The notes under the pieces were generated by a model that was not told the DNA's origin, did not search any database, and was given only the letters and a program-made list of their open reading frames with translations. The position numbers and the translations under genes are program-made. 64,000 bases of DNA, taken from contig CAYWZU010000001.1 in assembly GCA_964462925.1 (NCBI GenBank), positions 23,440 to 87,439 on the forward strand. Direction: 5' to 3'. Numbering within the stretch: position 1 is the first letter of the stretch; every line of letters begins with the position of its first letter. Positions 3,686-55,668 of the stretch are shown one piece after another. This DNA is from an uncultured bacterium (GTDB lineage Bacteria; Chlamydiota; Chlamydiia; Chlamydiales; FEN-1388).

Positions 3686-3732
3686 ACGAGCAGAACATCT
3701 TTTGAAACAGTACTGAGTAAAAAATGACCTTA

Positions 3733-3831
3733 TTGCATAATTAACCACCGAGGCATTAAGCTCACTGAGAATGGTGAGATAAGAAGAAAGATTAGTTGAT
3801 AATCCGCACATCTTAACTTCTTCCATATGGT
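3733..3831 (+). repeat. Copy A of a dispersed element: left-end fragment only (about 100 nt)
   Basis: ttgcataattaaccaccgaggcattaagctcactgagaatggtgaga... matches 55121-55225 (copy C left end) and the reverse complement of 8020-7925 (copy B), with a few substitutions and one indel. Confidence 0.7.
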
Positions 3832-7707: not shown

Positions 7708-7808
7708 ATTATCCTTATTAATAAAATAAGAATTATAGCATTAGTTATACAATAATTGCACCATAAAGTTTAAAAGTGACTTTATTAATTATTCTGAACA
7801 CTTTTGGG

Positions 7809-8020
7809 GCGTTGTTGCATAAACCACCACTGAGTCACTGAGTCCACTCGAAATTTTTGAGAAATCTGAGAATGCCTATACAATCAGGCGACGAAGAAGA
7901 TCGTGTTGTATTATGACAAGCTTAGGGATGCCATATAGTGAGCAGACTATCTTCTACTAATCCTTCTCCCTATCTCGACCCTCTCAGTGAGCTCAGTGCC
8001 TCGGTGGTTAATTATGCAAA
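7809..8020 (-). mobile_element. Copy B: internally deleted (MITE-like) derivative of the TIR-bounded GxxExxY element
   Basis: Both ends of copy C are present in reverse orientation. The 38 nt ttgcataattaaccaccgaggcactgagctcactgaga are identical to copy C. The other end, gcgttgttgcataaaccaccactgagtcactgag, is also present. The internal ctatatggcatcccYaagcttgtcataat and cttcgtcgcNtgattNtataggcaYtctcagatttctcaaaaat are retained, while about 290 bp of the ORF are missing. Confidence 0.55.
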
Positions 8021-8136
8021 GAGGCCAAGGCAAGCTTGGAGCTTTGAAAGATCCTCATAAATTAAAATTAGCTGGGTAAGATAATAACTGAGAAGAGCGC
8101 CCCAAACTTTGAAGCGCCCTGTTTAGACGTACTGCG

Positions 8137-53754: not shown

Positions 53755-55097
53755 ACACTCAAGACCTACTTGCAATAGCACCTCTTCTGATACTTTTTGC
53801 TGCAGCACTCCTGATGCTCCTTATAGAGAGAAAAAAGACAGTATCTCTTGTTGCAATCGGATCCCTTCTTCTTGCAGTAATAGCCGCGCTTTTTGCACCA
53901 GCCTCTCTAAGTCCAATGCTCACGCCATGGCTTGCCTTTGACTCGCTCTCTCGCTTTTTTACACTGCTCTTTTTAGGTATTGGCCTCGCTACTGAGCTTG
54001 TAAGCGAGTACTATTTTGAAAAAAAGGCAGAGTTTTCCTTCTTCCTGCTCTCATCGATCTTTGGCCTTATCTTAATTGCTATGGCTCAGGACTTTTTAAC
54101 GCTTTTTATTGGACTTGAAACACTCTCCATTAGTCTCTACGTTCTCTGCAGCTACATAAAAACAAACGCTTTTTCTGCAGAAGCCTCCTTTAAATACTTT
54201 CTCCTCGGCTCTGTATCTACCGCCATCTTACTTTTTGGCATTGCGCTGATCTATGGAAGCACAAAAACGACAGCACTCGTAATGCCTCAAAATCCAGATG
54301 CCCTCTTTGGCGTTGGTATATCGCTCGTTACAGTATCGCTACTCTTTAAAGCAGCCATTTTTCCCTTCCACATCTGGACACCTGATGTCTATCAAGGTGC
54401 TGCATCACCCGTTACGCTCTTTATGGCAGCTGGAACAAAAGCAGCAAGCTTTGCAGCCTTTATTCGGATATTTTTACTTGGATTCTCTGCAATTAATCCA
54501 ATCTGGCATAGCCTTATGGCCTATATGGCAATACCAACACTTCTCTTTGCAAACTTTGTTGCGATAAAACAAAAGGAGCTTAGGCGCTTTTTTGCCTATT
54601 CAGGTATCTCACATGCCGGTTTTTTACTCCTTGGCCTTGCGGCAGGTGATACTTCTAGCATTCTTTTTTACCTTGTTGTTTATGCCCTTGCCACAGTCGG
54701 CTGCTTTTGCTGCCTTGCCTTTATTGACAGAAAGCCAGAAGGAGTTACAGTCCCTGACCTCAAAGGCCTCTTTAGCGCACATCCAGTTATTGGCGCTTCA
54801 TTTGCCTTTTGCCTACTTACACTTGCAGGCATACCTCCCACAATAGGTTTTTTTGCTAAATTCTATATCTTTAAAGCAGCATACACAGCAGGCTTTGTTA
54901 CCCCGGTAGTTATAGGGCTTTTGACAACCATACTTTCTGCCTACTACTACCTTATGTTTATTGCCGCCATCTTCACAAGTAAGGAGGAATCCGCTCCAGT
55001 GCAAAACGGGCCACTTTTTGCAACATGCTTTGCATGCGCAAGTCTTCTTGTACTTACCTTCTATCCAGAGCCGCTACTCAAATTTATTTCGTTCTGA
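53751..55097 (+). CDS. nuoN: NADH-quinone oxidoreductase subunit N
   Basis: Antiporter-like subunit with FKAAIFPFHIWTPDVYQGA and FFAYSGISHAGF. Its ATG overlaps the nuoM stop (ATGA). Confidence 0.88.
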   Translation: MNTQDLLAIAPLLILFAAALLMLLIERKKTVSLVAIGSLLLAVIAALFAPASLSPMLTPWLAFDSLSRFFTLLFLGIGLATELVSEYYFEKKAEFSFFLLSSIFGLILIAMAQDFLTLFIGLETLSISLYVLCSYIKTNAFSAEASFKYFLLGSVSTAILLFGIALIYGSTKTTALVMPQNPDALFGVGISLVTVSLLFKAAIFPFHIWTPDVYQGAASPVTLFMAAGTKAASFAAFIRIFLLGFSAINPIWHSLMAYMAIPTLLFANFVAIKQKELRRFFAYSGISHAGFLLLGLAAGDTSSILFYLVVYALATVGCFCCLAFIDRKPEGVTVPDLKGLFSAHPVIGASFAFCLLTLAGIPPTIGFFAKFYIFKAAYTAGFVTPVVIGLLTTILSAYYYLMFIAAIFTSKEESAPVQNGPLFATCFACASLLVLTFYPEPLLKFISF

Positions 55098-55115
55098 ATT
55101 TTATAGTTTGAATAA

Positions 55116-55622
55116 GCGTTGTTGCATAATTAACCACCGAGGCACTGAGCTCACTGAGAATGGTGAGAGAGCGAGAAAGAGTAGTTGATGATCCGCTCGC
55201 TATATGGCATCCCCAAGCTTGTCATAATGTTTAAAGCGTTGGATTTACTAAGTGCCTCTCTTGTTGCCCCTTCAGGCTAAATAGCCAAGTGCTTCTTAAC
55301 CTCCAAGTCGAGCGGCAAAAGAGCATTCCTATCAAGTACAGGGACATCTTGTTAGATGCCGCATACCGCTTGGACTTAGTAGTGGAAGGTCAAGTAATCG
55401 TTGAAATTAAAGCTGTTGCACAGCTTTTGCCTATTCATGCAGCTCAGCTTTTATCCTACTTGAAGCAAATTGGTGGGGGAAGAGGGTTGTTGATTAATTT
55501 TAATGAAAGACTATTGAAACACGGTCTTCGTCGCGTGATTATATAGGCACTCTCAGATTTCTCAAAAATCTCGAGTAGGCTCAGTGAGCTCAGTGACTCA
55601 GTGGTGATCTATGCAACAGAGC
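55116..55622 (+). mobile_element. Copy C: the longest copy of the TIR-bounded element, carrying a truncated GxxExxY-family gene
   Basis: The left end gcgttgttgcataattaaccaccgaggcactgagctcactgag and the reverse complement of the right end (gctctgttgcatagatcaccactgagtcactgagctcactgag) match at 36 of 43 positions by manual alignment. The element begins 19 nt after the nuoN stop. Confidence 0.5.
55289..55546 (+). pseudogene. N-terminally truncated GxxExxY-family (PD-(D/E)XK nuclease-like) gene remnant
   Basis: The translation VERQKSIPIKYRDILLDAAYRLDLVVEGQVIVEIKAVAQLLPIHAAQLLSYLKQIGGGRGLLINFN..LLKHGLRRV matches the C-terminal two-thirds of GxxExxY proteins. The N-terminal roughly 40 aa, including the GxxExxY motif itself, are missing: there is an in-frame stop at 55232-55234 and only a GTG start. 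Confidence 0.65.
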
Positions 55623-55668
55623 CGTTTGAATGAGCGGCGAAAGAAGAACAAGACATCGGACATCAAAG

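Follow-up and report, generated by a model that had tools for sequence, protein, structure and literature searches.

Positions 55115-55623 of the window, by which we mean the whole 64-kb stretch of contig from an uncultured Chlamydiales bacterium that was analysed here, hold a 509-bp element that we take, with a probability of about 0.88, to be a dead, non-autonomous and internally deleted copy of an insertion sequence (IS) of the IS5 family, IS903 group. Homology and architecture are demonstrated, and so are the duplicated target sites and the deletion. On this reading, the intact element is about 1.56 kb long and carries 18-bp IS903-type repeats at its ends, arms of about 26 nt built of three units, a gene for a 314-aa DDE transposase and, divergent from it, a second gene for a 128-139-aa GxxExxY protein of the PD-(D/E)XK type; it inserts by DDE transposition and duplicates 9 bp of the target. 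The window copy retains remnants of these parts, namely both ends, the transposase tail and a C-terminal GxxExxY fragment, and a second element in the window, at 7808-8026, is a further-deleted MITE form (MITE stands for miniature inverted-repeat transposable element). Identification of the element as an ordinary IS relic explains the three repeats present in the window and averts the annotation of a pseudogene fragment as a "GxxExxY protein". All positions are those of the window, the numbering also used by an earlier interpretation (the sequence-only reading) whose claims are taken up below.

Ends of the element and target duplication

When all ends of the copies described below were compared side by side, the true termini were found to lie 7 nt outside the motif TTGCATA, at 55115 and 55623; the sequence-only reading had located the element correctly, and its limits of 55116 and 55622 need to be replaced by these. 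A repeat search returned inverted arms at 55120-55158 and 55580-55618 (39 nt, 87% complementary), and about 36 of 44 positions match when the two ends of the element are aligned out to the true termini, in good agreement with the 36 of 43 counted previously. The core 16-mer CACTGAGCTCACTGAG, with up to three mismatches allowed, was counted five times in the window, where 0.68 occurrences are expected from shuffling, and none of 100 shuffled sequences reached five; together with the length and complementarity of the arms, this rules out an inverted repeat that arose by chance.

Each end is composite. The outer part is an 18-bp IS903-type terminal inverted repeat, at 55115-55132 on the plus strand (AGCGTTGTTGCATAATTA) and at 55606-55623 on the minus strand (reverse complement GGCTCTGTTGCATAGATC); the family consensus of this repeat, GGCKTTGTTGCATAAATC, agrees at 16 of 18 positions with the inverted repeat of IS903B, GGCTTTGTTGAATAAATC, which was taken from an annotated plasmid copy (NZ_AP025654.1). 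The inner half, about 26 nt long, consists of three tandem 8-9-nt units of the CACTGAG type, which read ACCACCGAG GCACTGAG CTCACTGAG in the left subterminal arm (55133-55158, plus strand) and, in inverted orientation, CTCAGTGAG CTCAGTGA CTCAGTGGT in the right subterminal arm (55580-55605, minus strand). The consensus of all ends is GGCGTTGTTGCATAAATMACCACYGAGNCACTGAGCTCACTGAG, and the end sequence characteristic of the element family is GGCKTTGTTGCATAA. Abutting the left end is the left 9-bp copy of the target-site duplication, GTTTGAATA (55106-55114), which matches the right copy, GTTTGAATG (55624-55632), at 8 of 9 positions; no strand is assigned to either copy. A check for such duplications had been proposed on the basis of the sequence-only reading, and its outcome here and in the related copies is positive.

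An intact relative with two genes

The identity of the element was established by an intact relative, locus L028, which is 1,564 bp long, has ends of the same family at positions 424-479 and 1934-1989 of that locus, and is flanked by a perfect 9-bp duplication, GGTATCTAC. The L028 ends enclose two divergent open reading frames (ORFs), one of 314 aa on the minus strand and one of 139 aa on the plus strand. The 314-aa product scores 301.7 bits against the IS5-family transposase profile NF033579 (cutoff 140), matches PF13737 and PF01609, and is 44% identical to IS903B transposases over 99% of its length; the 139-aa product scores 143.8 bits against TIGR04256 (GxxExxY) and contains the motif that gives the family its name. 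Loci L018 and L031 have the L028 layout with damaged transposase genes. At either side of an element of the IS form, the IS repeat directly adjoins the arm. A search for relatives with the GxxExxY protein of another copy, L008, returned thousands of sequences, of which the best 120 were 76-98% identical and resided mostly on 1-2-kb contigs, as is expected because repeats break assemblies.

Classical IS903 is a single-gene element with 18-bp ends that duplicates 9 bp of its target and transposes without a partner protein. The L028 family shares with it a DDE transposase, the terminal repeats and the 9-bp duplication, the last of which is a signature of DDE transposition. IS903, however, is 1,057 bp long and has one gene between plain 18-bp repeats, whereas intact members of the L028 family hold a second conserved gene, the divergent GxxExxY PD-(D/E)XK gene, and have about 26 nt of three units inside each end. 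An IS903-group lineage with a conserved PD-(D/E)XK gene and unit-built ends thus departs from the one-gene IS903 paradigm. Our searches of the literature on IS903 passenger genes and chlamydial MITEs found nothing describing this element, and neither the two-gene IS903-group variant nor the cassette architecture considered below was found in the literature searched; both appear to be undescribed.

Gene remnants and the internal deletion

The ORF at 55289-55546 (plus strand) is a truncated GxxExxY/PDDEXK_3 gene that covers only profile positions 38-115. It scores 90.3 bits against TIGR04256 (cutoff 35), the family check that had been called for, and 87.7 bits against PF13366 (PDDEXK_3; cutoff 22), and its product is 73% identical to the L028 protein over 84 aa. 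The predicted catalytic D..ExK residues are kept (RLDLVVEGQVIVEIKAV). Lost by deletion are the GxxExxY motif and some 45-55 codons from the start of the gene, leaving less than the full domain of about 120 aa, and the missing N-terminus is encoded in none of the three frames upstream of the ORF; the description of the ORF as the C-terminal two-thirds of a GxxExxY protein, lacking the N-terminus and the motif, is therefore accurate.

Between the left arm and this ORF lies the 3' remnant of the transposase gene together with the deletion junction (55159-55280, minus strand), identified by DNA alignment to L028 positions 17-157. Transposase residues 285-309 were located by tblastn at 55273-55199 (64% identity, E = 0.001), and the minus-strand reading of the remnant gives NIMTSLGMP, as in the C-terminus of the L028 transposase. 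The window copy as a whole aligns with positions 17-157 and 1270-1580 of the L028 element, and the gap between these segments is without a match. On this alignment, one deletion of about 1.1 kb took the bulk of the transposase gene, the stretch between the two genes and some 45-55 codons from the start of GxxExxY, and the N-terminus and motif are missing because of it. The "decay" of the gene is thus a single event that also removed the transposase gene, and not the slow erosion of a gene standing alone; that the copy carries no transposase was correctly seen, as only a C-terminal remnant of about 25 aa is left. Movement of such a copy would require a cognate transposase supplied in trans, as was evidently the case for the 150-240-bp MITE forms described below. 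The window copy itself is probably inert now, because its ends have diverged and its duplication matches at only 8 of 9 positions.

Related copies in the window and in other genomes

Two further copies are present in the window. The first, at 7808-8026 (219 bp, minus strand), is a MITE-like derivative in the opposite orientation, in which the two ends are preserved together with the 3' remnant of the transposase gene and about 10 codons from the end of GxxExxY; its positions 7910-8019 are 85% identical to positions 8-114 of the window element, and 7813-7897 are 82% identical to positions 411-504. Over its 219 nt, it is 80% identical to a copy in another Chlamydiales genome (L011). The second, at 3726-3807 (plus strand), was delimited by sequence alignment as a solo left end that has the terminal inverted repeat and the arm and runs into the beginning of the 3' remnant of the transposase gene; its positions 3730-3807 are 88% identical over 78 nt to positions 5-82 of the window element. 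Both had been noticed in the sequence-only reading, one with both ends and one with a single end, which holds except that the solo end stops near 3807 rather than at 3831.

The expectation that more copies would be found elsewhere was borne out by a search of a genome collection with a degenerate pattern built from the element ends. Sixteen loci with these ends were obtained, all in metagenome-assembled genomes (MAGs) of Chlamydiales/Parachlamydiales (five or more MAGs), and eleven of them came from one long-read MAG; the genome of the window is not among the sources of these loci, and their elements are only about 84% identical to the window's. Most are elements of 140-240 bp with two ends. 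The MITEs of the related MAG fall into at least two subfamilies, and four copies (L003, L006b, L015a and L015b) have one common internal junction, indicating that a subfamily multiplied after the deletion. In L008, a 706-bp copy, an intact 128-aa GxxExxY gene (GPGLLESTYE) lies between the same ends without a transposase gene. Like bacterial MITEs and other IS derivatives with internal deletions, these elements are short, lack a transposase, have both repeats and a target duplication, are multicopy and show subfamily deletion junctions, and the window copy likewise is transposase-less, with both repeats, a target duplication and several relatives. Unlike typical MITEs, the window copy keeps part of a gene, and in L008 the gene is intact, so that IS, gene-only and MITE forms all occur within the family.

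We compared the 9-mers flanking 19 copies with those in permuted pairings. At least 7 of 9 positions matched in 10 of the 19 copies, against 4% of permuted pairs, and the observed mean of 6.3 matches exceeded both the control mean (4.4) and the highest control mean (5.1). Perfect 9/9 duplications flank L008, L010 and L028.

One locus with an unusual arrangement was noted among the copies. In L111 (2020-3060), an intact GxxExxY gene lies between a fourfold tandem array of the left end, with a period of about 117 nt, and a twofold one of the right end, and the IS-type outer repeat is only partial.

Several observations weigh against the window element being an IS903-group relic. A transposase search found no intact IS903-group transposase gene anywhere in the 64-kb window. 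The duplication of the window copy is imperfect (8/9), and no recognisable duplication was seen at 7808-8026 of the window (3/9), L015a, L016 or L018. No empty site was found, the nearest NuoN relative (77% identity) having other downstream genes; among named NuoN matches, the best belong to Chlamydiales/Parachlamydiaceae MAGs, at 50-58% identity. The full-length copies are metagenome contigs without host assignment. The second gene and the extended arms go beyond IS903 biology, and the L112 and L113 proteins (78-86% identity) are encoded in arm-bearing cassettes without IS903-type ends; these plain cassettes of close relatives indicate that the combination of IS and cassette is not obligatory.

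The empty site is relevant to the setting of the element. The upstream neighbour is a NuoN-type gene (Proton_antipo_M) ending at 55097, in accordance with the earlier assignment as nuoN, and downstream, convergent with it, lie a PHO4 phosphate transporter gene and then a gene for a PhoU_div protein. An empty nuoN/PHO4 site would be predicted to contain a single 9-mer, as ...TTTTATA-GTTTGAAT(A/G)-AGCGGCG.... An Rfam scan of the 64-kb window returned no family at gathering score, hence no tRNA, rRNA or riboswitch was detected.

Plain GxxExxY cassettes in other bacteria

The GxxExxY gene with its arms was also found outside the IS. We examined 80 diverse loci (L030-L109) encoding proteins 50-66% identical to the chlamydial protein, a biased sample in that it was drawn with one peptide pattern as the best 80 of 590. 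Arms were scored when the best flanking inverted repeat exceeded 20 shuffles by at least 3 points. By this measure inverted arms flank the gene in 62 of the 80 loci, and two or more CRCNRAG units are present in 59. The arm has the form (T)TCACC-RCNGAG, N-CRCNGAG, NN-CRCNGAG, with 30-50 nt separating it from the ORF, and the arm-to-arm span is uniform at 425-465 bp (e.g. L063:1618-2055, L066:2017-2471 and L065:960-1411). For exact identity of units, the values are 0.52 inside an arm and 0.55 between the arms of a locus, but 0.14 between loci. At the level of the GxxExxY family, the proposal of one unit made up of the gene and its flanking repeats is thus borne out.

An IS903-like transposase is absent from 79 of the 80 loci and present in one, and the plain cassettes have neither an IS903-type outer repeat nor a target duplication beyond chance (1.46 vs 1.04 in the control). 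By crude ORF calling, the next gene upstream points in the direction of the cassette gene in 56 of 61 loci, and the median gaps are 59 nt, to this neighbour, and 70 nt. The pattern recurs with a plain cassette in isolate records, those of Bernardetia and of Bacteroides finegoldii (protein WP_032839887.1), where the cassette separates radA from the gene that follows. Several cassettes on separate contigs occupy one and the same genomic site, suggesting that they were inherited vertically, and proteins 78-86% identical to the IS-borne one lie in plain cassettes with nearly identical arms.

The chlamydial IS gives the impression of an IS903-group transposon that was joined with precision around a GxxExxY cassette. 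One possible history is that an older cassette of about 450 bp, whose protein would act on its own arms, was later enclosed, in one lineage, by an IS903-group transposase and its repeats. We consider this plausible without being probable; it is compatible with the window element being an IS relic and would add an evolutionary and a functional layer to that reading. It would account for a cassette architecture common to 59-62 of the 80 diverse loci, with its narrow span and its occurrence in isolates, for unit variants that are alike within a locus and differ between loci, for the near-identity of the arms around closely related proteins in plain cassettes, and for the IS repeat that abuts the arm on both sides in the IS form. 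It is less easily reconciled with the plain cassettes themselves, which are without a mobility signature and at shared sites look vertically inherited, and the position of the transposase gene between the left arm and the GxxExxY gene is hard to account for. Moreover, the bias of the 80-locus sample applies here.

Plain cassettes in two contigs, without IS903-type outer repeats, follow immediately on the stop codon that ends a Cation_efflux gene (L112:2390-2960 and L113:2420-2950). The proteins are 86% and 78% identical, respectively, to the IS-borne protein, and the location suggests either that related genomes share this site or that the site is preferred.

Empty arm pairs of 70-170 bp were found near cassettes. 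In L086 (67-855 and 2177-3354), an arm pair encloses a HicB/HicA toxin-antitoxin pair, and four "empty" arm pairs of about 120-130 bp stand in tandem beside a GxxExxY gene, resembling a small cassette array; the larger arm pairs in L070, L108, L107 and L059 held no convincing extra cargo genes. A small gene with short inverted repeats, empty hairpin doublets nearby (L061, L064, L073 and L086) and repeat variants that are specific to a locus or genome are reminiscent of REP/RAYT systems (REPINs). RAYTs, however, are relatives of HUH/Y1 transposases whereas GxxExxY is of the PD-(D/E)XK type, and REPs are single palindromes whereas the GxxExxY arms are triple 8-nt units.

The GxxExxY protein and its possible roles

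A full-library search yielded 20,684 GxxExxY clusters at 50% identity (E <= 1e-3). Many cluster representatives have odd terminal peptides, such as TEGTEDTE, HRRGAEDAEG and SLSVSSVLSVV, which are translated tandem-unit repeats. The top-scoring representatives (P0121-P0133) are about 265-295 aa long with two tandem GxxExxY domains. In an alignment of 52 diverse members, the GxxExxY motif and residues D72, E82 and K84 are invariant, and among the IS-borne copies dN/dS is 0.03-0.06, with dS saturated; the gene is therefore maintained by selection. A family of more than 20,000 such clusters is systematically bracketed by inverted triple-unit arms.

A role in defence or in phages is argued against by the lack of a GxxExxY match in PADLOC and PHROGs. 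No sequence relative of the protein was found in the PDB; the profile matched only RelE toxins there (E of about 0.8, residues 16-86), which is not significant. An AF2 model from a shallow alignment had a pLDDT of 61.8, with the C-terminal third below 50, and Foldseek against the PDB returned nothing below E = 0.18. The literature found on "GxxExxY" and "PDDEXK_3" consists of incidental mentions with the function given as "unknown", the term also used for PDDEXK_3 in a survey of the superfamily (PMC3424549).

The sequence-only reading had viewed the gene and its flanks as a selfish unit, possibly spread by homing or recombination, in which no transposase is present. The element is indeed the relic of a mobile element and not an ordinary gene, so that the first half of this view stands; a self-mobilising unit whose spread is driven by the nuclease gene is not supported. 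Arms without a transposase throughout the family (62 of 80 loci with arms, 1 of 80 with an IS903-like transposase), the invariant D..ExK residues and GxxExxY motif and the low dN/dS would all fit such a unit. Homing endonucleases such as I-Ssp6803I are likewise small PD-(D/E)XK-family proteins of selfish elements. We nevertheless give this explanation very little credence. In the element family found in the window, IS903 repeats make up the outer ends, 9-bp duplications flank the copies, the intact ones have a DDE transposase gene, and gene-less MITE forms spread without the nuclease gene. Furthermore, neither an intron or intein nor a conserved homing site is present; the copies lie between genes, at sites that are unrelated and whose 9-bp duplications differ.

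The GxxExxY protein could alternatively be an accessory nuclease of the IS, which, like TnsA of Tn7, would cut the second (5') strand at ends to which it is guided by the subterminal units. The element and Tn7, with its TnsA and TnsB, have in common a PD-(D/E)XK-family and a DDE transposase gene within one set of ends and repeated subterminal sites, the units directly adjoin the transposase-type repeat, and the IS-borne copies are under strong purifying selection. We consider this role improbable all the same. Compared from sequence alone, the protein has no detectable similarity to TnsA or to solved structures, and the structure model is too poor for a fold comparison; the L028 family has no TnsC/D/E-like genes, and its duplication is 9 bp, that of Tn7 5 bp. 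In addition, the gene and arms occur without a transposase in 79 of 80 loci, MITE and transposase-less forms have evidently transposed, and classical IS903 needs no such partner.

PF05635 genes and possible pairing of the arms in RNA

A comparable arrangement was encountered around genes of another family, PF05635 (23S_rRNA_IVP), which were retrieved with a four-helix-bundle bait sequence and represent three independent contexts. In all three, the gene stands between inverted arms, each a tandem run of 7-8-nt units, and the unit sequences differ. They lie inside restriction-modification operons (in the order methylase, gene, ResIII) and between cas2 and cas1. Among these loci (L116-L130; e.g. 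L116:760-1200, L126:700-1250 and L127:740-1210), the units read TTCATAATTATGAATTCATAATT and TTGTCAATTGATAATTGACAATTG, and L126 has a 92-nt repeat.

The family documented in rRNA intervening sequences is the four-helix-bundle S23p (PMC4990558). In Coxiella, the 23S intervening sequence, of 428-444 nt, encloses the S23p ORF in a 28-bp terminal stem; where this sequence came from is said to be unclear (PMC4990558). GxxExxY cassettes resemble such S23p/PF05635 intervening sequences (about 430-450 nt, inverted repeats of about 28 nt, one small ORF; PMC4990558) in size and architecture, a likeness that we treat as a lead rather than a demonstrated identity. They differ in cargo family and unit sequence, and none of the GxxExxY cassettes seen lies in rRNA.

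It is conceivable that the arms work at the RNA level, pairing in a read-through transcript to form a stem of the RNase III type that excises or insulates the cassette RNA. The co-directional position in operons (56 of 61 upstream neighbours), with gaps that leave little room for a promoter, the size and stem of the Coxiella intervening sequence (PMC4990558) and the analogous flanks of the PF05635 genes are in its favour. We nonetheless judge it unlikely: the arm mismatches show no sense-strand excess of G.U-compatible changes (59 vs 65), half of them being transversions, and pairing leaves the likeness of the three units within one arm unexplained. Furthermore, the genes of the IS form are divergent, so that no single internal transcript spans both arms. 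Rfam scans of the window and, at E <= 1, of six loci turned up no relevant family and neither a group I nor a group II intron.

Taken together, the two families allow a tentative generalisation, to which we assign somewhat less than even odds. Mini-cassettes of about 450 bp, each a small gene between inverted arms of three 7-9-nt units homogenised per locus, would form a widespread class, whose cargo would be a GxxExxY nuclease, a four-helix-bundle/23S_rRNA_IVP protein or, occasionally, HicAB. They would sit co-directionally in host operons, restriction-modification and cas operons among them; ORF-bearing rRNA intervening sequences may belong to the same class; and the chlamydial element would be a hybrid, an IS903-group transposon around a cassette. 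If there is one such class, the origin and movement of ORF-bearing rRNA intervening sequences become testable, for which suitable systems would be cultured Bacteroides, where a cassette separates radA from the gene that follows, and the hybrid that bears the transposase. The chlamydial element would then offer a handle on cassette movement and on the action of the GxxExxY nuclease on the arms.

Rearranged and possibly nested copies

Two further sets of loci concern the IS form. On a 2.67-Mb contig (L017:1-1418), a left end belonging to an IS903-type/GxxExxY element has been interrupted by the insertion of a Tn5-like IS4-family element with 21-nt inverted repeats. In the marine contigs that encode P0061 (L019-L027; L018), the transposase fragments are rearranged or nested, and near-perfect 65-nt inverted repeats lie within the transposase region (L019:1-65 / 566-630; L018:366-431 / 781-846); this pattern could be due to nested insertions or to assembly artefacts.

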